A program made the position numbers and the translations under genes. From NCBI GenBank assembly GCA_025325205.1, contig GCA_025325205.1_4770.1: 52,259 nt of DNA; one strand, given 5' to 3'. This DNA comes from a phage. The notes beneath the pieces were generated by a model. The model saw only the letters and a list, made by a program, of their open reading frames with translations. It was not told where the DNA came from and did not search any database. This document shows positions 2,794-28,382 of the stretch, one piece after another (the first letter of the stretch is position 1; the number at the start of each line of letters is the position of its first letter).

Positions 2794-3131
2794 TAGAACA
2801 CTTCCTTAAACAAATCAAATTTAACATGCTCGTAGATTTTATTCAGCTGAGTTAGCTTGCGAATAAATTCTTTACTGGTATTCTCGTCAATTGCACAGGT
2901 ATCCGTCTGGATCTTCCATGTATCAGAACGCAAACGTAGCAAGAATGAACCGTTCGGATAAACCGTCTTCGCTTCTGGCATATAGTGCAGAATGCAGGAT
3001 ATTGTTCCTTCAGGTGGTATAAGAACAATATAAGTATCATTCACGTCGCTGTGACTAATAATCCAACCGCTCTGTAGTAAAGTATCGCGGAGCTGGCAAT
3101 ACATTTTCGGAATAACGATATCTTTGGCCAT
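2793..3131 (-). CDS. hypothetical protein
   Basis: 112-aa ORF, start/stop overlap with neighbours (operon-like packing). Confidence 0.35.
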   Translation of the reverse strand: MAKDIVIPKMYCQLRDTLLQSGWIISHSDVNDTYIVLIPPEGTISCILHYMPEAKTVYPNGSFLLRLRSDTWKIQTDTCAIDENTSKEFIRKLTQLNKIYEHVKFDLFKEVF

Positions 3132-3496
3132 TATTGCACTTCCACAATTAACAATTCACCATGACGTTCACGAGCGAGATTATATAAATCTTGTTTCTGC
3201 TCAATACTTAATTCGCAGTCAAGAATGGCAATATCACAATGGAAGCCACTCGTACGAATAACAGTGTCTTCATACGAGTCTCTGCGATGAGCAACCAAAC
3301 GAAGGTGGAAACGATCAAACTGTACCACAGATGACTCGCGCGACAGTTGTACACACCGAACGAACTCAGGATCTTCGCGCAACACTTCTTCGAGCTTCCT
3401 GCGATATTCGTTAGCAGGACATAAAACAAAAGCTACGCGATCGTCTTTCAGCTGTGGTCGTAAGATAGACCAGGCTTTAACTATATTCTCGTTCAT
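3131..3496 (-). CDS. hypothetical protein
   Basis: 121-aa ORF, first gene of the minus-strand block, upstream of a long noncoding region. Confidence 0.4.
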   Translation of the reverse strand: MNENIVKAWSILRPQLKDDRVAFVLCPANEYRRKLEEVLREDPEFVRCVQLSRESSVVQFDRFHLRLVAHRRDSYEDTVIRTSGFHCDIAILDCELSIEQKQDLYNLARERHGELLIVEVQ

Positions 3497-3997
3497 ATAA
3501 ACCCCTTTAACGTTAACGGAATAACTATAACAGGATACGCAAGTTGATTAACATAGCCGGCCGCAACAATTAATAACCACAGTTAACTGTCTCGTGTGCT
3601 TTAAATCTTGTGCGGCAGAATCAGTTACACATACCAGAAACCGAATCTTGTAAACTCATCTCGAGTATTTACATACGGAATTAACTTTATACGAACAATA
3701 TAGGGCAGGTGAGGTGAGGATATAAAGTGTCTAGTGACGAGATAATCTACAAACGATGAATCCTTGGCAGAGATCTAAGAGCCGCCCGCGGCGTTACTAT
3801 AACGTCCCGTGATCGTCAGTGAGGTGATTGTTACGCCATGTGACTGTTACTTGTTCTATTGTTATGTTGTTTATTGTTACACGCGTTATTATTTTTTATT
3901 TGATTAGTATACTATCTATTACAGGACTATACTATAATGTCCAGTATAATTACGTCTGTTACTATCCACCTGCCCACTATGTGCTGTCTATGTATGT

Positions 3998-4066
3998 GCT
4001 ACCTGGTATTTCCTGCGCGTGCTGTTACCTGGTATTTTCAGCACACTCGCGCTACCTGGTATTTCC
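3998..4066. repeat. three direct repeats of G(C/T)TACCTGGTATTT(C/T)C with 26-27 bp period
   Basis: Copies at 3998-4013, 4024-4039, 4051-4066 read directly from sequence; lies in the divergent intergenic region between minus-strand and plus-strand gene blocks. Confidence 0.8.
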
Positions 4067-4150
4067 GGCACACCGTCTACCGTATAGTCCCGGATGTTAT
4101 TATTATTATGAAACACAACTAAAAAAGTTCTAAAATAATGCAGATAATAG

Positions 4151-4179
4151 TTGCATCTGATACCCTGTTGTCATACTAT
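4151..4179 (+). promoter_or_regulatory. candidate sigma70 promoter (TTGCAT-N17-TACTAT)
   Basis: -35 TTGCAT 4151-4156, 17-nt spacer, -10 TACTAT 4174-4179, about 75 nt upstream of the first plus-strand early gene with AAGGGAG RBS. Confidence 0.4.
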
Positions 4180-4254
4180 AACTGCGTAGGGTAAAGGGGG
4201 TTTTAAAGCGGGACACGGGTTCCGCGCCCGCCTCACCCGAAGGGAGATTGCATT

Positions 4255-4560
4255 ATGTCCATTATCTACTTACCGCGTTCTATGTCCCAGTCACAGATCA
4301 CCAAACGTATTATCGGCAAGCGCCTGCACCAACTGGGCCTTACTGCGGAAAAGGTTGACGGGGATTGGGGTTTCGACGAGTATCTGGTAATGCTCCCGGG
4401 CAACGAAAAGTATTCCAGCACCGCGTTATATATTCGCATTAACGAGGACGGCACTGTCAGCTCTTATAGCGTAATGTACGGTCGACCAGTATGCCAAGCG
4501 AATAGCCTTTGGTCTGTGTTCTGCTTTATTACAATGATAGCTAAAGCTATCCAACAATAA
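4255..4560 (+). CDS. hypothetical early protein (paralog family with 6177-6434)
   Basis: 101 aa; N-terminal SQSQITKRIIGKR shared with ORF 6177-6434 (SMITRRIIGKR); good RBS. Confidence 0.45.
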   Translation: MSIIYLPRSMSQSQITKRIIGKRLHQLGLTAEKVDGDWGFDEYLVMLPGNEKYSSTALYIRINEDGTVSSYSVMYGRPVCQANSLWSVFCFITMIAKAIQQ

Positions 4561-4636
4561 TAGCGTGCTAATGGTTGCCCATTGTTACAGTGGGCTCCCA
4601 CTAGCAATCCGCTAGAACAACATGGAGATATTCACA

Positions 4637-5116
4637 ATGGTTACTATCACCCGCGTAGCAAAAGACGCTCGCTTCTTTGCCACTATGTCTAACGCTCGCC
4701 GTGCCTTAAAAAAGGTTCTGGATGTGGACACTGCGACAGCTAACAGCTTTATTCACCAGGAACCGCACGAGGACGGTGGTCGCTACTGGTACAGCGAAAG
4801 CGCGGTTAATAAGGCAGCTAGCGATCTGGTTGAAGCTGATAAAGCGACTGTCGTGGAAGTGACCACACAACCAGCTCCAACCGATCCCGCTAAAAGCAAA
4901 ACACGCAGCGAAACGCGCAACGGGGTCCGCCGCCCAATTAAAGGTAAATGCGCAGACGTTTGGAACGCTCTGGATAATATGTTGCCTAATGGTGTGCCAA
5001 CTATTGGTAACGTCCGTGACCTTGCGAAAGCTAATGGTTGGAATATTAATAATGCAACGATTGAATTCTACGCATGGCGTAAATTCCACGGGCTCAATAA
5101 TAAAGGGGGCAACTAA
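4637..5116 (+). CDS. hypothetical protein
   Basis: ORF 4622-5116; start chosen at ATG 4637 preceded by GGAG (4624-4627); no motif recognised. Confidence 0.4.
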   Translation: MVTITRVAKDARFFATMSNARRALKKVLDVDTATANSFIHQEPHEDGGRYWYSESAVNKAASDLVEADKATVVEVTTQPAPTDPAKSKTRSETRNGVRRPIKGKCADVWNALDNMLPNGVPTIGNVRDLAKANGWNINNATIEFYAWRKFHGLNNKGGN

Positions 5117-5118
5117 TT

Positions 5119-5193
5119 ATGTTCTACTTATTAGCTTTCTTGGTGTTCGGTGCTCCAATAGTTGCGGGCCTTTATTATACGGAGGGCAAATAA
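5119..5193 (+). CDS. candidate 24-aa hydrophobic micro-protein (MFYLLAFLVFGAPIVAGLYYTEGK)
   Basis: ATG 5119 with GGGGG upstream; single predicted TM-like segment; below the ORF-track length cutoff; its 3' end carries the RBS of the next gene. Confidence 0.2.
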   Translation: MFYLLAFLVFGAPIVAGLYYTEGK

Positions 5194-5194
5194 T

Positions 5195-5380
5195 ATGGAA
5201 ACTATAGTTCTATACTGCTGGGTTGACCTGGACGAACACGAATATTGCGTGAATATTAACAACGGACCAGTCCCGGACGCAACTTTCGCATCCTATGACG
5301 AAATGGATGCGTATGTAAAAGGTTTCCGCGAGTGCGCTCGCATTGCAAATATTAACGTGACTGTAATTTTACCGGAATGA
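5195..5380 (+). CDS. hypothetical protein
   Basis: ORF 5162-5380, start chosen at ATG 5195 following GGAGGG RBS. Confidence 0.35.
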   Translation: METIVLYCWVDLDEHEYCVNINNGPVPDATFASYDEMDAYVKGFRECARIANINVTVILPE

Positions 5381-5652
5381 TTATCATGCGTAAACCTAAC
5401 CAAAATTCTTTCGTTGAAATGGCTCGTGTTGTTCTCAACCGTCAGTCCTTCTACCTGTACCACCGTCACGAGTTTGATCTGTGGACTGAAGAGGAAACGT
5501 GCTGCCAGTACGAGATCCATACCCGGAATGGTGTAATATTCACTTCCAGTAATTATCCGGAAGTTAAAGAATACTGGGACAAGCTGATCGCTGAAGCGTA
5601 TGTTGAATTCCAGAAGCAAACTATTTACCCAATGGGCCTTCGCGCTGAGTGA
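5377..5652 (+). CDS. hypothetical protein
   Basis: 91-aa ORF; ATGA start/stop overlap with upstream gene. Confidence 0.4.
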   Translation: MIIMRKPNQNSFVEMARVVLNRQSFYLYHRHEFDLWTEEETCCQYEIHTRNGVIFTSSNYPEVKEYWDKLIAEAYVEFQKQTIYPMGLRAE

Positions 5653-5687
5653 TTATTAACGGCAACATAATTTAAGGAGTGACTATC

Positions 5688-5807
5688 ATGGCTCAAGCTA
5701 TTATCACAAAATTCGTCAACCCGACAGCCGCTCGCGCTCCGCGCGTAAAAGCAACAGGCTGGAACGGTTCTGTAACTATCACATGGCGGGACGATCTGGG
5801 CGTTTAA
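5688..5807 (+). CDS. small ORF (39 aa) terminated by TAA that is followed in frame by a further 41 open codons
   Basis: AAGGAG RBS 5674-5679, ATG 5688; TAA at 5805-5807; downstream in-frame segment 5808-5930 has no ATG/GTG/TTG start. Confidence 0.3.
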   Translation: MAQAIITKFVNPTAARAPRVKATGWNGSVTITWRDDLGV

Positions 5808-5943
5808 GGCAACCACCGCTCCGCAGCGGAGGAGCTGATCAATAAGTTTAATGCTAAAGCGGGCGTTGAATTTGAGATCCTTGCTGGTGGTGAGCTCCCG
5901 GATCAAAGTGGTTACGCGTTTATTGTTCAATAAGGGGATAATT

Positions 5944-6108
5944 ATGGAACGCAACTATTTCCAGGTTATTTATCGCGGTCGTTGCTATCACATCCGCAAC
6001 AAGTTTCGCAACCTGTCCCGCGATCAACTTGAATACGCTATTAATCTGGTGAGTGATGGTCACTTCGCTACACTATCAGAAGCGTTAGAATATGTGTCCG
6101 CTGAGTGA
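5944..6108 (+). CDS. hypothetical protein
   Basis: ORF 5851-6108; start chosen at ATG 5944 after AAGGGG RBS. Confidence 0.35.
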   Translation: MERNYFQVIYRGRCYHIRNKFRNLSRDQLEYAINLVSDGHFATLSEALEYVSAE

Positions 6109-6176
6109 CATATATATTGCCCATAGTAACAGTGGGCAATAATATGCACTTCGCATAGTTAACTGAGGAAACTATT

Positions 6177-6434
6177 ATGTCTACAACATTAAACCAGTCA
6201 ATGATCACCCGTCGCATTATCGGCAAACGTATAGCTAATCTTGCGACTATCACCGCAGAGCTGGAAACTTTCGGTAATAACGCGCGCAAATATCGCGTCC
6301 GTTGCAATGGTCTTAACGTTTATTTAACAGTGTTCGACGACGGTAAAGTTCACGCGGAACTGCATACTATGGGCCGCCTGGTTGCAACCGCGTCCACGCT
6401 GGTGGGCTTCATCAACCTGTTAAAAAACTGCTAA
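6177..6434 (+). CDS. hypothetical early protein (paralog of 4255-4560)
   Basis: 85 aa; shares N-terminal ITRRIIGKR motif and EDG/DDGKV segment with ORF 4255-4560. Confidence 0.45.
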   Translation: MSTTLNQSMITRRIIGKRIANLATITAELETFGNNARKYRVRCNGLNVYLTVFDDGKVHAELHTMGRLVATASTLVGFINLLKNC

Positions 6435-6463
6435 CTTTTAAAATTGTAACGGAGATAAATAAT

Positions 6464-6712
6464 ATGAACGCTATCCATGTAAAAGCACTAGCACCGACTC
6501 AATCCAAAGGTATGCGCTTCAAAGCAGTCGGCCTCGGTATGTGTGCAGTAACTGCAAACGACTACAACCTCAACAGTGAAGCGAACGCCGCTGCCGCTGC
6601 CCAGGAGTTACTAGATAACTACAACATGCAGAACCAGTCGCTTCAACTTAAAATACTTGGAGTTGGTACGCTTCCAGATAATACCTGGGCGGTACTATTA
6701 ACTTGTAAATAA
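6464..6712 (+). CDS. hypothetical protein
   Basis: 82-aa ORF with RBS, followed by a terminator. Confidence 0.4.
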   Translation: MNAIHVKALAPTQSKGMRFKAVGLGMCAVTANDYNLNSEANAAAAAQELLDNYNMQNQSLQLKILGVGTLPDNTWAVLLTCK

Positions 6713-6735
6713 CTTCTAACTGCATTATACAATCC

Positions 6736-6772
6736 GCGCCCTGTTGAAGTCCAACGGGGCGCTTTCGTTTTT
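6736..6772 (+). terminator. rho-independent terminator
   Basis: GCGCCC (6736-6741) / GGGCGC (6757-6762) stem with TTTCGTTTTT tail, directly after the early gene block. Confidence 0.6.
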
Positions 6773-6904
6773 GTACCCGCACCACTTCCCGCGTTACCCT
6801 GCTGACCACATGTTACTCACCCATTCCTCCACCATTCGCGCTCTAAGAACCTAACTCCTTCCTCCATACATTACCATTGACTCCAATTTAATCGCCTTAT
6901 ACGC

Positions 6905-7062
6905 CCTTACAGCGATCCACTCCCTGCTTCCCTGTACGCGATTTTGGGGCATTTTCGCCCCTCACTGCCACCCTTACACTGATCCAACCGCTTTATCGCG
7001 CTACGTGCCCCGTTTTCGCGGCTATTTTCGCTTTATGGGCGACCCGCTACACCGATCCCAGC
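6905..7062. repeat. three spaced copies of a GATC-containing motif ACA(G/C)(C/T)GATCC plus TTTTCGC repeats in a noncoding region
   Basis: GATC at 6914-6917, 6981-6984, 7054-7057 each inside the conserved 10-13 nt motif; no ORF with RBS in this region. Confidence 0.6.
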
Positions 7063-7516
7063 CACCCAACCTCACCGAAAGCCACCTTTCACCGAAAAAT
7101 CCGACATTTATACCATAAAATAGAATCGTTTTCGGGCTACAAAAATTCAAACTCAAAAATCCGATTCACTTCGAGAGTCACTTCAACAAAAATCGCTTGC
7201 AATCCAGTTTTCTTTTGTGTTAGACCGCGTGCCCGCATTATGCGCGTGCGCGAGCTTGTGAGCGCCTCGTTGTTGCGCAACAAATATTTCTTATATTGTT
7301 CGTATATTTTCGCTTAATATACGAAATGAAAGGAGGTAAGTGCATGAAAAATAAGGTAAAAATGTGTATGTGTGTGTATTTATATAAATTTTATAAAGAT
7401 TTTTTATTTTTGAGTTGTCTACTGACGACCCCCACGAGACCCCTTTATAAATAATATAAGAAATAAATTTCGCAACATTGCCAAATTTCCCCTTTAAAAA
7501 CAAGCATTTCAGTATC

Positions 7517-7587
7517 GTGTTAATTTATTGTTAAAAACCTATAAATTGTTAATTTATATTTAAAGCATGTTAAATTTGTTAAATATA
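7517..7587. repeat. five TGTTAA(T/A)(T/A)T repeats in an AT-rich stretch
   Basis: tgttaatttat, ttgttaaaaac, ttgttaatttat, tgttaaatttg, ttgttaaatat read from sequence. Confidence 0.6.
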
Positions 7588-7616
7588 CCCTTCAGACTGT
7601 TGTAATTTTTTGCAAA

Positions 7617-7683
7617 AGCAAAAACTTTGCATATACAAAACACCGCAAAACATCACAGTTGCAAATAGCAAAAACTTTGCATA
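7617..7683 (+). promoter_or_regulatory. two copies of 17-bp element AGCAAAAACTTTGCATA (inverted-repeat core GCAAA-N3-TTTGC) overlapping candidate -35/-10 hexamers
   Basis: Copies at 7617-7633 and 7667-7683; TTGCAA/TTGCAT hexamers within; lies about 60-130 nt upstream of the first gene of the replication block (7745). Confidence 0.45.
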
Positions 7684-7744
7684 AATTAAAACTTGGCAAC
7701 TGAATTTCAAAATCATTCGATTTATTATTATCAAGGGTGAGGTT

Positions 7745-10116: not shown

Positions 10117-10353
10117 ATGTCAGATTTAGTCATCGTTCACTATTATGGTTCAGATGTAGAAGTACCAAAAGACACAAGATATATTGCAACAGATTCTGAT
10201 GGTTGCGTGTACGCATTTAATAATGACAAGCCCGTCTTTAATGAAAAGGTCGGTACATGGTGTGTTTACACGAATTCTTTTAAGCTGGTAGATGTCAACT
10301 TTGATGTTGTACCATCCCGTTCGTTATTTGAAATTAATCCCGCTACGTTTTAA
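10117..10353 (+). CDS. hypothetical protein
   Basis: 78-aa ORF with GGAG RBS. Confidence 0.35.
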   Translation: MSDLVIVHYYGSDVEVPKDTRYIATDSDGCVYAFNNDKPVFNEKVGTWCVYTNSFKLVDVNFDVVPSRSLFEINPATF

Positions 10354-10362
10354 GGTAATGAC

Positions 10363-12912
10363 ATGCTGGAACTTTTTCCTCAAGAAATTAAACAATACGA
10401 ACAGTGGGCTGTCTGCGGTTTCCATCCAGGTACATCATCAGAAAAACAACCTTATGTGTGGGACGATGATTTAGGGGATATGGTCCCACTTCGTAAAGAC
10501 GGCAACGATAAAAAACCGTCTAATTTGCATTTACTAATGTCCTTTGAAGATGCGGAACGTTGTATTCGTTACTATAACGAAATCGGTCATAATCTGCGTT
10601 TAGGTTTCTATCTACTTCCAAGTGATCCGTTCTGTTGTATAGACATGGATATTAAAGACACCATGTCTGAAATGGAAAAGAAAGTTGCTGGTGAGCGATA
10701 TAAGAAGATTGTTGAATCGTTCCACAGTTATACGGAGATTTCCAGAAGTGGTGATGGGTTACACACATGGATTTATTCCATCCCTCAAGCTGGTAAGCGC
10801 CGTGATGGTGTGGAAGTGTATTCCCAGTATCGTTTTATTATCTGTACAGGGGATCACTGGGATATTACTCCGCGCACTGTGTCTGGTGCTCCAGGTAGTG
10901 AAAGCGAAGGGTATATCGCTAATCTCATTCATCAACTTATGTCTGAGATGAGTGAGATTAATGAGTGTGATGGCTTCCAAATGCTGGAACTTACTGAAGA
11001 AGATTTTAGTAACGACCCATATGCAATGGAAGACCAGGATGTCTATATCCAGTTGTGTGAACAAGAAAACGGAACATTGTTTAAGCAGCTATGGGAAGGT
11101 CGTTGGAGAGCTGAAGAAGTTGATACTTCTATCGGTGAACGTTGTTTCCCTTCTCAGTCTGAAGCAGAGTTTGCATTAATTGACTTTCTTTGCTTTAAGA
11201 GTAAGTACAATTTCCAGGTAAGACGTCTGTTCATGTATTCACCAATGAGTAGTCGTTACGATGATTCCCGTCGTCTGCCCGGTGAAAAAATCAAACGTCC
11301 TTATCACCTGGATAGAATGATTCGCAACTATCGCTATGACGCCCATGTTAAATCTATGGGACTTATGCAGATAGTTCAGAATAACGTTAATGCAGCTATA
11401 GAGCGCACGGAAAAACTGCGTCAAGCAACTACACCAGAACGCCCACCTGAAGAAGTGTTGACCACAGATGGTAATTACACTGAGGAGCAAGCGGACGGTT
11501 TAGCCTGGCCTCCGGGCTTTATGGGCGAGGTTGCGCGTAACATGTATAAAGCGAGCTTGTTGCCTATTAAAGACATTAGTATTCTGTCTGCTCTTGCTTT
11601 ATTTAGTGGTATGTGCGGTAAGGCGTGGAACACGGTTACACGAAGTGGTCTGAACAACTACTTTGTATTAATTGCACGTTCTGGTATTGGTAAAGAAGCA
11701 TTTCGCTCTAACATTGAAACAATTCTTTCTCAGGTTTCCAATTATGGCGGTCAGGACGGGCAACAGATATTCGGTATTGAACGTGTTTTAGATACCAGTA
11801 CCTATGCGTCTGATGCTGCATTGCGCAAAGACGTCATAATGGATACGTCTGTTATGTCTTGTGGCTCATCCATTAACTATAAGACTGAAGTCGGTGCGTT
11901 TTTCCGTAACGGTAAGATGGAAGTTGGTAAAGCTAAAGACATTATGGATGAAATGCTTTCCCTTTATGATAAAGGACATTTCTATGCTTTCTCTGGTGGT
12001 TCAAAGCACTCTAGCAAAGATAATACGACCGCTGGTGGTAAAGTCAAGGCGTATAGTTTTGCAGGTGAAACAACACCAGATGAATTTTATGGGAACGTTG
12101 ATGACCGCATGATGTCAAGTGGTTTCATGTCTCGTATTATTGCATGGGAATGTACAGCTAACCGCCCACTCATGAATAAGAGTATGCTCCTGGAATATCC
12201 GGAAGCAATTCTGCGGACTATTGGAGCTATCTATAAACAAGCTGTGCGTATTATGTCAGGGACTGCTCCATGTTATGTTGAAATGGAAGCAGAGGTACAC
12301 GAAGCGTTTGATAACCTTGATAATGTTGTCGCGAAGTTCCTGAATAGCGGTAATGACGGTGAACAGGTACAGGATGAAGTAATCCGTCAGATGTACACAA
12401 GGAAGGCGTTGAAGGTATTGCGTATCGCCTCCCTTCTTGCTGTAGCAGATAACAGTGAGCGTCCTGTTGTTACTATGGAACATTATCGTTGGGCTGAGTC
12501 ATTTATTGATCAGGGTAACGAGCGTTTCTTAGAGAAGCGTAATAGTGGGCTGATTGGGTCTACAGATAGTACCAGTCGTGAGAAAATAATGCTCAACTCT
12601 ATCAAGAAGTTCTTGGATGGGGAAGTTAAAGCTGGTGTGTATAAACGGTTCCCAATGTTTAAGGACGCGTTTATTGTCACACGAAGTGATCTATGCACAG
12701 TATGTCGCCAGTTCAAGGCTTTTAAACAAACAAGAAATGACAACATCTTGCAGGTCATAGACAACACAATTTATGGTTTGATGTCCATGGAAGTTCTTAC
12801 TGAGATGAGGCCAATGGACTTTTCAAGTTTCTTCGGTGCAGAGTTTACACCACCGAGGATGAAATGTTATTTGGTGGACATTGAGAGAATGAACGAAGTT
12901 ATTAAGTTATAA
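10363..12912 (+). CDS. DNA primase-polymerase (archaeo-eukaryotic primase superfamily) with large C-terminal domain
   Basis: AEP motifs in order: CCIDMDIKD (hhhDxD), SRSGDGLHTWIY (sGxGxH), FIICTGDHWD; C-terminal region has only a degenerate P-loop-like SGIGKE, so helicase activity is not supported. Confidence 0.6.
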   Translation: MLELFPQEIKQYEQWAVCGFHPGTSSEKQPYVWDDDLGDMVPLRKDGNDKKPSNLHLLMSFEDAERCIRYYNEIGHNLRLGFYLLPSDPFCCIDMDIKDTMSEMEKKVAGERYKKIVESFHSYTEISRSGDGLHTWIYSIPQAGKRRDGVEVYSQYRFIICTGDHWDITPRTVSGAPGSESEGYIANLIHQLMSEMSEINECDGFQMLELTEEDFSNDPYAMEDQDVYIQLCEQENGTLFKQLWEGRWRAEEVDTSIGERCFPSQSEAEFALIDFLCFKSKYNFQVRRLFMYSPMSSRYDDSRRLPGEKIKRPYHLDRMIRNYRYDAHVKSMGLMQIVQNNVNAAIERTEKLRQATTPERPPEEVLTTDGNYTEEQADGLAWPPGFMGEVARNMYKASLLPIKDISILSALALFSGMCGKAWNTVTRSGLNNYFVLIARSGIGKEAFRSNIETILSQVSNYGGQDGQQIFGIERVLDTSTYASDAALRKDVIMDTSVMSCGSSINYKTEVGAFFRNGKMEVGKAKDIMDEMLSLYDKGHFYAFSGGSKHSSKDNTTAGGKVKAYSFAGETTPDEFYGNVDDRMMSSGFMSRIIAWECTANRPLMNKSMLLEYPEAILRTIGAIYKQAVRIMSGTAPCYVEMEAEVHEAFDNLDNVVAKFLNSGNDGEQVQDEVIRQMYTRKALKVLRIASLLAVADNSERPVVTMEHYRWAESFIDQGNERFLEKRNSGLIGSTDSTSREKIMLNSIKKFLDGEVKAGVYKRFPMFKDAFIVTRSDLCTVCRQFKAFKQTRNDNILQVIDNTIYGLMSMEVLTEMRPMDFSSFFGAEFTPPRMKCYLVDIERMNEVIKL

Positions 12913-14228: not shown

Positions 14229-14536
14229 TGCCCAGCAGAATGTACAAAGTGCTAGGATGGAAGCCTTATACTTTTCGCTCAAACTACGACAAGGAAATGA
14301 AGTGTAAACGATGCCCAAAGTGTGGTCACACTCAGTTTACAGAGACTGTTGTAGCTCAAGTTGATGGTTACTATTCGCCTGTGTGCGAGTCAAAGATTAA
14401 TTGTAATCATTGTGAGCAAGAGGTAAACTATTGGGCATATGGTTACTACGAACCACATCATATGGTTGCAGATCGTAGTATGTCCATGCTGATCAATCGT
14501 ATTGAAGCTAAATTAAGGAGAATTAGTTTACCATGA
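14228..14536 (+). CDS. putative zinc-ribbon protein
   Basis: CKRCPKC ... CNHC cysteine pairs (CxxC x2 pattern). Confidence 0.35.
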   Translation: MPSRMYKVLGWKPYTFRSNYDKEMKCKRCPKCGHTQFTETVVAQVDGYYSPVCESKINCNHCEQEVNYWAYGYYEPHHMVADRSMSMLINRIEAKLRRISLP

Positions 14537-14712
14537 GTAAGAAAACCGATATCCGCAATCGCAATGCCGCTATTACTGCTTATCGTATGCGGGAGAAAGG
14601 TTTTACTTATAACCACATTGCTGAACATCTCGGCAAGAAGCCACATCAAATTAAATCGCTCATTCTGTTAGGTGAGCGCCTGGAATCTTTAAATGAGGAG
14701 ACGACACAATGA
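14533..14712 (+). CDS. small putative helix-turn-helix DNA-binding protein
   Basis: 59-aa ORF (below track cutoff) from ATG 14533; GFTYNHIAEHLGKKPHQIKSL resembles an HTH. Confidence 0.3.
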   Translation: MSKKTDIRNRNAAITAYRMREKGFTYNHIAEHLGKKPHQIKSLILLGERLESLNEETTQ

Positions 14713-26966: not shown

Positions 26967-28382
26967 ATGTGCTCTATCTTTGGTGTTATTACTAACGGTC
27001 AACCTGAAAGTCTTATCATTCGTAACGATATCAACGATCTCATTAAAGCTAGTGTCAACCGTGGTCGTGATGGTCTTGGTGTACGCTTTACGCATGGTGA
27101 CCACAGTATGCACCCGCAACGTATCGTCAGCGTCGGTAAAGAAACATCGATGGAACGTCTTGTTAAAGTGGGGCGCATTGCATCTCACGCTGGAGCTATT
27201 GGCAGCTTCACGATGATTGGTAACGCTCGTGCTGAACCGACTACAGAATGGGTCGTTGACAAGAGCGAGTGGGACCAGCAACCATATCACCTCGATGGTT
27301 GGACTATTGTTCATAACGGTACTATTGCGAACGATAAAGACCTTCGCACCTATGCACTACAAACTAAGATCGATAGTGCTGCAATTGTTGAACAGTTAGC
27401 AGAATGCACACTTTCAAATGATGAAACATGTTTAACTGACTTTAACTACCTGTATAGTGTGTTTCACGAAGTTGTTCGTAAACTGAAAGGGAGTTACGCA
27501 ATTCTTGCGACACATGATTCATTCCCTGGATGCGTGTTTGCAGCATGTAACTATCGTCCGATTTGGATTGGCCAGACTAATACTGGTATGTATTTCGCCA
27601 GCCAGGAAGATATGTTACCGACCAGCGCAACTAAGCGGATGTTGAAACCTTACTCATGTAGTGTGGTTACAGCTACAGATGTACAAAATGAAGTTGATCT
27701 TATTCCAAATAAGCAGACTCAACGTGCGTTAGTTGTCGCCAGTGGTGGTATGGACAGTACGGTGGCAGCTCAGATGTGCAAGTCCAATGGTTTAGATGTC
27801 ACTCTCATTAACTTCCAGTATGGTTGTCGTGCAGAAACTAATGAGTTAAAGGCTATTCGTAAGATTGCGGAAGTAATGGAAGTTCCGTTAGTTGAGTTCC
27901 CAATCCCAATTTACGATAAGAAAGACAGCCCGTTATTTGATCAAGACGCTGCAATTGCTGGTGGCGAAGAAGGTGCTGAGTTTGCCCATGAATGGGTTCC
28001 AGCTCGTAACCTTGTAATGCTTTCTGTTGCTACTGCATACGCAGAAGCTAACGGTTTCGACTATATTGTTCTTGGTAACAACTTAGAAGAAGCTGGAGCC
28101 TATCCGGACAACGAGCCTGAGTTTATTAACCGCTTTAATCAGGTGCTACCATTCGCTGTAGGCGACGGTAAGCGCGTTGAAGTGCTCATGCCAGTAGGTA
28201 ACTTAATGAAGCACGAAATTGTCGCTACAGGCCTACGTTTAGGGGCCCCGCTTGAGCACACCTGGAGCTGTTACCGTAACGGGGATTTGCATTGTGGTAC
28301 TTGTGGCCCTTGCATGATGCGTCGGACTGCGTTTAATATTAATAACGCACAAGAAGTTATTAAATACGAAAGCGAGGAATAA
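26967..28382 (+). CDS. queC: glutamine amidotransferase-QueC fusion (7-cyano-7-deazaguanine synthase-like with N-terminal class-II GATase)
   Basis: Begins MCSIFGV (Ntn Cys after Met, asparagine-synthetase-like); central ALVVASGGMDSTVAAQMC PP-loop (SGGxDS); C-terminal WSCYRNGDLHCGTCGPCMMR Zn-Cys cluster typical of QueC. Confidence 0.7.
   Translation: MCSIFGVITNGQPESLIIRNDINDLIKASVNRGRDGLGVRFTHGDHSMHPQRIVSVGKETSMERLVKVGRIASHAGAIGSFTMIGNARAEPTTEWVVDKSEWDQQPYHLDGWTIVHNGTIANDKDLRTYALQTKIDSAAIVEQLAECTLSNDETCLTDFNYLYSVFHEVVRKLKGSYAILATHDSFPGCVFAACNYRPIWIGQTNTGMYFASQEDMLPTSATKRMLKPYSCSVVTATDVQNEVDLIPNKQTQRALVVASGGMDSTVAAQMCKSNGLDVTLINFQYGCRAETNELKAIRKIAEVMEVPLVEFPIPIYDKKDSPLFDQDAAIAGGEEGAEFAHEWVPARNLVMLSVATAYAEANGFDYIVLGNNLEEAGAYPDNEPEFINRFNQVLPFAVGDGKRVEVLMPVGNLMKHEIVATGLRLGAPLEHTWSCYRNGDLHCGTCGPCMMRRTAFNINNAQEVIKYESEE

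Follow-up and report, generated by a model that had tools for sequence, protein, structure and literature searches.

The stretch of DNA that was analysed, referred to here as the window, is 52,259 nucleotides long, and the region in question matched 18 phage records, all of them Nonagvirus (phage 9g-like, Queuovirinae), with 92–95% identity. A gap of 758 bp (3497–4254) separates an open reading frame (ORF) on the minus strand from one on the plus strand, in agreement with an earlier sequence-only reading that had called the region noncoding, and a short array of direct repeats lies within this gap. The two ORFs and the three repeat copies are as follows:

3131–3496, minus strand: first ORF of the leftward (late) block, 121 aa, no family match.
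3998–4013, plus strand: repeat copy 1, 16-mer GCTACCTGGTATTTCC, with the core TACCTGGTATTT at 4000–4011 and the palindrome centre at 4004.
4024–4039, plus strand: repeat copy 2, GTTACCTGGTATTTTC, with the core at 4026–4037 and the centre at 4030.
4051–4066, plus strand: repeat copy 3, GCTACCTGGTATTTCC, with the core at 4053–4064 and the centre at 4057.
4255–4560, plus strand: first early ORF of the terminal repeat, 101 aa, phrog_13865.

The three near-identical 16-nt units at 3998, 4024 and 4051 had been reported in the sequence-only reading and were all recovered (GCTACCTGGTATTTCC, GTTACCTGGTATTTTC and GCTACCTGGTATTTCC, respectively). Exact copies of the 12-mer core TACCTGGTATTT start at 4000, 4026 and 4053, which gives periods of 26 and 27 bp, and a repeat finder returned three 21-nt copies from the same three starts. 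Each core contains the 9-bp palindrome TACC-T-GGTA, which is followed on its 3′ side by a T-rich flank. The two spacers next to copy 2 make up an inverted repeat of 8–10 bp (GCGCGTGCTG at 4015–4024 and CAGCAC..CGCGC at 4039–4052), and the array thereby has a pseudo-dyad. Copy 3, which ends 190 nt ahead of the ATG at 4255, was almost invariant in 16 genomes, and copy 1 was the least constrained of the three, with either T or G at position 11 among the relatives. Periods of 26 and 27 bp correspond to 2.5 helical turns, and neighbouring sites are therefore on opposite faces of the helix. The short repeats that had been seen in the surrounding sequence were also found, with TTGTTA at 3828, 3859 and 3874 and GTGAGGTGA at 3709 and 3819.

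A search for the motif elsewhere in the window, which had been suggested for the 16-mer, was run with the 12-mer core. With at most one mismatch, on both strands of the 52,259 bases, the only matches were the three in the array, compared to 0.25 expected from dinucleotide shuffles. The motif is thus confined to the array. A 10-mer with at most two mismatches gave 60 matches compared to 40 ± 8 expected, a number that was reached in 3 of 100 shuffles; the array itself accounted for 6 of the 60, and a genome-wide enrichment is not clear.

Three independent lines of evidence place the physical end of the 9g-like coliphage genome at window 3778|3779. HdSG1 has a perfect direct terminal repeat of 3,363 bp with an inner boundary that maps to this position (...GAGATCTAA|GAGCCGCC...), and HdK1 has a perfect terminal repeat of 3,367 bp that ends at the same homologous base. 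In the assembly of phage 9g, 91 read starts were piled at position 28,243, and this was read as the physical left end (Kulikov et al. 2014, PMC4276943). When aligned by BLAST, position 28,243 of 9g was exactly window 3779. The second boundary of the terminal repeat in HdSG1 and HdK1 mapped to window 7448–7451|7452. Two further features follow from these comparisons:

3779–7451, plus strand: inferred direct terminal repeat of about 3.67 kb, present once in the window and expected at both ends of packaged DNA.
3660–3850, no strand assigned: conserved terminus block, from about −120 to +70, nearly invariant in 14–16 Nonagvirus genomes including JenP1.

With the terminus at 3778|3779, the direct terminal repeat holds the array at its positions +220 to +288, and there are consequently two arrays per virion. 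It falls in what was published as the '473-bp untranslated left end' of 9g (PMC4276943), and the untranslated leader of the window (3779–4254) is 476 bp long. Apart from the array, the terminal repeat contains seven small early ORFs and a non-coding tail of 737 nt. In virion DNA, the unique sequence has 3497–3778 as its right end, whereas 3779–4254 forms the leader of the terminal repeat. Because the terminus lies within the 758-bp gap, only concatemers and the right-hand copy have the gap in one piece. The earlier description of a divergent early control region was therefore correct in that opposed ORFs flank the gap but imprecise in that a genome terminus splits it. Likewise, the remark that the repeats could relate to genome ends or packaging was borne out for the location, with the terminus 220 bp to the left, but an essential role in packaging is unlikely given JenP1 and the copy-number variants presented below. 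The terminus block persists beside an HNH insertion in HdK1 and is recognisable in Klebsiella-clade relatives, where the small terminase subunit (TerS) is 61% identical. Judged by sequence conservation, this block is a better candidate than the array for the site of end formation or terminase recognition. In HdK1 (L011) the inserted HNH endonuclease gene occupies 657–1304, and its right junction is 21 bp left of the terminus (window 3758–3778). The insertion marks a hot spot just outside the terminus block that holds 9g_00039 or nothing in other genomes.

Several observations were made on the terminal repeat and its distal part. The first and sixth ORFs of the repeat (4255–4560 and 6177–6434) are paralogues within phrog_13865, and the ORF at 6464–6712 belongs to phrog_3199 together with the gp3 gene that is called 'TetR-like' in 9g. 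The distal part of the operon in the terminal repeat exists as two allelic cassette types, one in 9g, SE1, SP8 and JenP1 and the other in the rest of the genus. The last 737 nt (6715–7451) are non-coding, and their top strand is strongly C-rich with a GC skew down to −0.44. Just past the terminal repeat, at 7452–7744, the DNA is 74% AT and has AAAACTTTGCA repeats with a 17-bp period and the cumulative GC-skew minimum, and this stretch is a candidate origin or promoter cluster. The layout around 6715–7744 is reminiscent of the first-step-transfer region of T5. In Klebsiella phage K9PH25C2 (L032), the non-coding counterpart of the distal part of the terminal repeat has a 15-bp periodic array of TAGCNNTCTAATNGT at 10294–10409, seen as five overlapping 42-nt matches that are mostly 15 bp apart.

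The array was present in three copies at the same place in 12 of 13 isolates and was also found in further viral and metagenomic contigs. JenP1 was the sole Nonagvirus genome examined that did not have it, and two contigs had one or two copies. Between the copies in the window, 12 of 12 core positions are identical compared to 4 of 14 flanking positions (Fisher p = 2e-4). In an alignment of the leader from 16 genomes, which differ by 5–9%, there were variable columns at 2 of 30 positions in the 10-bp cores and at 15 of 50 positions in the spacers (Fisher p = 0.022). Since the spacers must have been duplicated along with the cores, the difference seen between them within the window indicates selection on the cores, and the cores are under constraint while the spacers drift. 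When the cores were instead compared with the whole leader (2 of 30 and 82 of 436 variable columns, respectively) the difference was not significant (p = 0.14).

A protein-coding tandem repeat was ruled out by the reading frames, the start codons and the substitution pattern. The periods are not multiples of three throughout, frames and starts are not kept and there is no bias by codon position, and the array is therefore not coding. The long frame through the array was broken in all relatives, and a 61-codon frame has its ATG in the window only. Variable columns were distributed 14/8/13 over the three codon positions, without an excess at the third, and the variants in the frame would be nonsynonymous in 27 cases and synonymous in 11. 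A search of the array against Rfam gave no match, and the RNA folding of the array compared to shuffles gave z = −1.07 on the plus strand and z = −2.35 on the minus strand. A stem at copy 2 was either invariant or had one side broken in the relatives, with no compensatory changes.

Scans of viral and metagenome sequences found the spaced pattern in Nonagvirus only, with other matches being coding repeats, and the enterobacterial chromosomes did not contain it. Mimicry of a host regulatory site was rejected after a scan with one genome per bacterial species, which returned unrelated coding repeats and two contaminating phage contigs. These two, NZ_JPLA01000062.1 (L043, Dyella japonica DSM 16301) and NZ_MPDK01000056.1 (L047, Sulfoacidibacillus thermotolerans Y002), are short Nonagvirus contigs that carry the terminus and the array, and they are most likely coliphage DNA that contaminates bacterial assemblies. 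In the collection of papers searched, the motif string occurred in no relevant paper and no transcript mapping was found, and the 9g paper (PMC4276943) is silent on the repeat. The array is an ordinary kind of regulatory repeat with details that have been undescribed.

One natural variant is JenP1 (L013). Its genome follows the order of the window through the late block and across the terminus to about 3976, at which point window 3977–4170 is swapped for an unrelated cassette of about 690 bp with an ORF of its own, and homology returns ahead of the conserved leader of the first early gene. The cassette was not found in other genomes and is unique to JenP1. It extends from about 1076 to 1762 in JenP1 and begins with an inverted repeat with 25-nt arms. 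It further has a promoter-like site (TTTACA..TATAAT), a pair of GC-rich hairpins, a hairpin resembling a terminator with T6 after it and a 102-aa ORF that belongs to no family; the cassette may code for a small RNA and, in addition, a moron gene. Other variants were found among the contigs, where a viral contig (L039) had one copy and a metagenomic contig (L084) had two, although an assembly collapse is possible for both, and copy 1 was degenerate (GGCCTGGTRTGT) in L043, L047 and a third contig, L162. The array is dispensable or plastic, and JenP1 is a natural isolate without it. The existence of variants with zero, one or two copies, or with a degenerate copy 1, is more in keeping with a modulatory element than with a single cis site that the phage cannot do without.

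The array is surrounded by promoter-like elements and conserved blocks, two of which are listed here:

3959–3999, no strand assigned: conserved 41-bp block directly left of copy 1, strongly conserved.
4093–4179, no strand assigned: AT stretch (79% AT at 4093–4150) followed by the promoter-like element TTGCAT-N17-TACTAT.

The block at 3959–3999 contains a leftward promoter-like sequence, TAGACA-N18-GATAGT, from 3990 to 3961, with a score that is not above chance, and the JenP1 breakpoint at 3977 lies within the same block. On the right side, the promoter-like element has TTGCAT at 4151–4156 and TACTAT at 4174–4179 with 17 nt in between, and it is retained in JenP1 as TTGCAT-N17-TAYTAT despite the replaced flank. 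The early and late promoters Pl and Pr of 9g were placed in the region of the array, and the text of that paper calls them divergently oriented (Kulikov et al. 2014, PMC4276943). The BPROM promoters in the 9g record mapped to window 3900–3934 on the plus strand and to about 4134 to 4105 on the minus strand, that is, face to face (convergent) across the array. In scans of the leader with a consensus and with position weight matrices, there was no sigma-70 candidate above the shuffles, with a best score of 10.3 compared to a mean of 9.4 for the best in shuffled sequences. If the BPROM promoters were used, the array would be in the overlap of convergent transcripts and would be a roadblock. With the best-conserved elements (3990–3961 leftward and 4151–4179 rightward), the array would be an upstream site between divergent promoters. 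The 5′ leader of the first early gene (4185–4254) was almost invariant in 16 genomes and is kept in JenP1 and FritzHoffmann, and a GC-rich hairpin predicted in it was no better than in shuffles (z = −0.96).

The proteins encoded around the array were searched for a binder with Pfam, PHROGs and a PDB sequence search, and no DNA-binding family was found above threshold; there were helix-turn-helix (HTH) hints below threshold. AlphaFold2 models of the neighbouring proteins and Foldseek searches with them were uninformative on the binder. The 121-aa ORF at 3131–3496 is labelled 'potential sigma factor' in the 9g record, and its AlphaFold2 model was poor (pLDDT 42). FritzHoffmann has a different gene at the place of 4255–4560 and has kept the array. 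The small protein at 14533–14712, which the sequence-only reading had proposed as a binder, did not hold up: its HTH matches are below threshold and JenP1 still encodes it, so that there is nothing to connect this protein with the array. Another protein of the late block, of 117 aa and encoded at 1996–2349 on the minus strand, is predicted to end in a C-terminal three-helix bundle (…AAKEFNIGLSTAYKIYHI), with a pLDDT of about 82 there and 69 overall. A fold search with this model gave nothing significant, with Mu Mor at E = 0.36. Its positional counterpart in Klebsiella phages is annotated as a late transcriptional activator and has sub-threshold matches to Mor and HTH_28, and the two proteins align weakly (E = 0.077). 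The protein at 1996–2349 may be a late activator.

A comparison of gene content did not reveal any phage gene that was lost or had diverged specifically in JenP1, and the segments missing from JenP1 were not universal among the array carriers. The phrog_3199 gene is found as two allelic types, neither of which tracks the array, and the 'TetR-like' gp3 of 9g was rejected as a binder on finding an unrelated ORF instead in both the window and BRET, which have the array. A role for Dcm or EcoRII was also rejected; there is a CCTGG in each core, but CCWGG is not avoided genome-wide, with 90 sites observed compared to about 56 expected. Likenesses to Chi-like, LexA, sigma-54, DnaA, marbox and NarL sites were dropped by eye, as the spacing or key positions did not fit.

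The most likely role, which we put forward tentatively and at something short of even confidence, is that of an accessory array of regulator-binding sites that acts on end-proximal promoters. The 476-bp untranslated leader at the physical left end would then hold three predicted sequence-specific sites, and a putative dimeric regulator, encoded by the phage or by the host, would occupy all three. The bound regulator would modulate transcription from promoters near the genome end. The transcription affected would run rightward into the terminal-repeat early genes, leftward towards the late block (starting at the right-hand copy and in concatemers), or both ways, and the array would in this way tune the infection programme without being required. 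We infer both the protein binding and the transcriptional effect from sequence. The reading as an operator is suggested by a motif that is confined, has selected cores, is non-coding and is dispensable; by a palindromic core with a regular direct spacing, as in arrays of operator sites; and by a position between conserved promoter-like elements of both strands in the Pl/Pr region (PMC4276943). In addition, the Klebsiella-clade relatives do not have the motif and instead have a different tandem array of 3 × 10 bp at the same offset from the homologous terminus, which fits the turnover expected of a recognition sequence that co-evolves with its binder. The sequence-only reading had also suggested regulator sites, with iterons as an alternative. 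The core constraint, the non-coding nature and the confinement of the motif supported regulator sites indirectly, but the 2.5-turn spacing, which had been taken to suggest cooperative binding, is not itself evidence for cooperativity, and no binder was found. A spacing of 2.5 turns is unusual for cooperative repressors and counts against the operator reading. The same is true of the search for a phage gene that changed along with the array, which found none, of the lack of the spaced motif in enterobacterial chromosomes, where its presence would have implicated a host regulator, of sigma-70 candidates that do not outscore shuffles, and of cores that are not significantly better conserved than the whole leader (p = 0.14).

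It is unlikely that the repeats are iterons of a replication origin, where an initiator, possibly the phage primase-helicase, would bind the repeats and melt the AT stretch at 4093–4150, as at lambda ori. Three regularly spaced dyad-symmetric repeats adjoin this 79% AT block, the whole array has a pseudo-dyad, and the candidate early promoters nearby could activate an origin by transcription. However, JenP1 is without 3977–4170 and thus without both the array and the whole AT stretch, and its replication genes are still 91–95% identical. The copy number varies from 0 to 3, there is no initiator-like gene or family adjacent, and the spacing of 26.5 bp keeps the sites off a single face of the helix. 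The cumulative GC skew instead has its minimum at 7452–7744, where there is also a stretch with many repeats and a far higher AT content. The iteron idea of the sequence-only reading was thus weakened, and an essential role as iterons is unlikely given the loss in JenP1 and the variants with one or two copies.

We also consider it doubtful that the array has no present function and is the relic of a tandem triplication, with copies that are homogeneous through gene conversion or a recent origin. The absence of the array, or its reduction to one or two copies, in natural variants is consistent with a relic, as are the core conservation that does not exceed the average of the leader and the failure to find a binder. 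In contrast, the cores are identical while the co-duplicated spacers diverged (12 of 12 compared to 4 of 14 positions), and gene conversion would be expected to even out the spacers as well. Cores and spacers show this pattern also in the 16 genomes that differ by 5–9%.

The probability is rather low that the array is an accessory to packaging, with cosB-like sites for the small terminase that would position the cut at 3778|3779 or the duplication of the terminal repeat. The array is 220–288 bp inside the physical end and has three sites, like R3, R2 and R1 of lambda, and the Klebsiella clade has a triple array at the same offset; in JenP1, another inverted repeat is found about as far from the end. 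However, TerS of JenP1 is 100% identical to TerS of the array carriers JenP2 and PD328, and at least 98.4% identical to TerS of all other members of the genus, yet JenP1 has zero copies. Since an identical TerS is found in a phage without the array, the array cannot be an indispensable recognition site for TerS. The cut-site block from −120 to +70 is far more deeply conserved and is kept both in JenP1 and beside the insertion in HdK1, and the motif does not recur close to the opposite boundary of the terminal repeat.

A broader version of this idea, to which we give a lower probability still, is that a short tandem or pseudo-palindromic array about 170–290 bp inside the left boundary of the terminal repeat is a conserved feature for the processing or use of the end in Queuovirinae with long direct terminal repeats. 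Possible roles are an accessory for the terminase or for duplication of the repeat, a hairpin intermediate, as proposed for the processing of T7 concatemers, or a checkpoint for DNA entry. With low probability, the sequence would turn over between lineages while the position stays. The versions by lineage would be TACCTGGTATTT three times in Nonagvirus, GCTRTARGGC three times at about +225 in the Klebsiella clade, where it is loosely conserved, and the inverted repeat with 25-nt arms at a comparable offset in JenP1 (+167 to +266); Seurat has nothing comparable.

Finally, tandem promoters, with an extended −10 (TGgTATTTT) in each unit for the host RNA polymerase as in the three A promoters at the left end of T7, are very unlikely. 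In their favour, TGnTATTTY is found in every unit, copy 2 (TG upstream, TTTCCT-N18-TATTTT) takes third place among the plus-strand candidates and early promoters are expected near the end that enters first (Kulikov et al. 2014, PMC4276943). Against them, copies 1 and 3 have TATTTC with a C at the critical last position of the −10 in the window and in many relatives, the score of 8.2 is below the mean best score of 9.4 in shuffles, a −10 element would not explain why the TACC ahead of the TG is invariant and a spacing of 26 bp is too short for three polymerases at once.

The 9g-like phages are models for the modification of DNA with 7-deazaguanine (archaeosine) and are included in the BASEL collection, and both their early/late switch and the formation of their ends are uncharacterised. 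A conserved and previously undescribed cis element has now been placed at +220 to +288 and told apart from the cut-site block, where conservation is deeper, and the natural variants with zero, one and two copies are ready-made controls. If a binder is found for the predicted regulator-binding sites, it would give a handle on the timing of transcription in a virulent phage with terminal repeats and with DNA that is heavily modified on entry.

Among known systems, the array is like the lambda operators OR1–3 and OL1–3 in that three sites of partial symmetry follow one another every 2.3–2.5 turns or so, differ slightly and lie in a control region between opposed transcription units. In contrast to the lambda operators, with their symmetric core of 17 bp, the symmetric core here is only 9 bp, a gene for a repressor or a Cro-type protein was not found next to the array, and the overlap with promoters is only putative; the phage here is virulent, and its array is in a terminal repeat 220 bp from the genome end. 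The array also resembles lambda cosB (the gpNu1 sites R3, R2 and R1), as both have three short repeats a few hundred bp from the cut, on the side retained by the packaged genome. The cosB sites are needed for efficient packaging and match TerS, whereas here a phage with an identical TerS has no sites. As in lambda ori and plasmid iterons, direct repeats with an internal dyad symmetry are followed by an AT-rich stretch, but the spacing is 2.5 turns compared to about 2 turns in iterons, there is no adjacent initiator gene, a viable isolate lacks the element and the compositional signals are at 7.45–7.75 kb and not at the array. The terminal repetition of T7 is flanked by short repeat arrays, and the terminal repeat of T5 has repeat-rich non-coding DNA. 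T7, T5 and the phage analysed here are thus alike in having short, function-poor arrays near the boundaries of terminal repeats that contain the first-expressed genes. They differ in the length and sequence of the repeat units, with no homology between them, and the T7 arrays flank the terminal repeat, whereas the array here is inside it.
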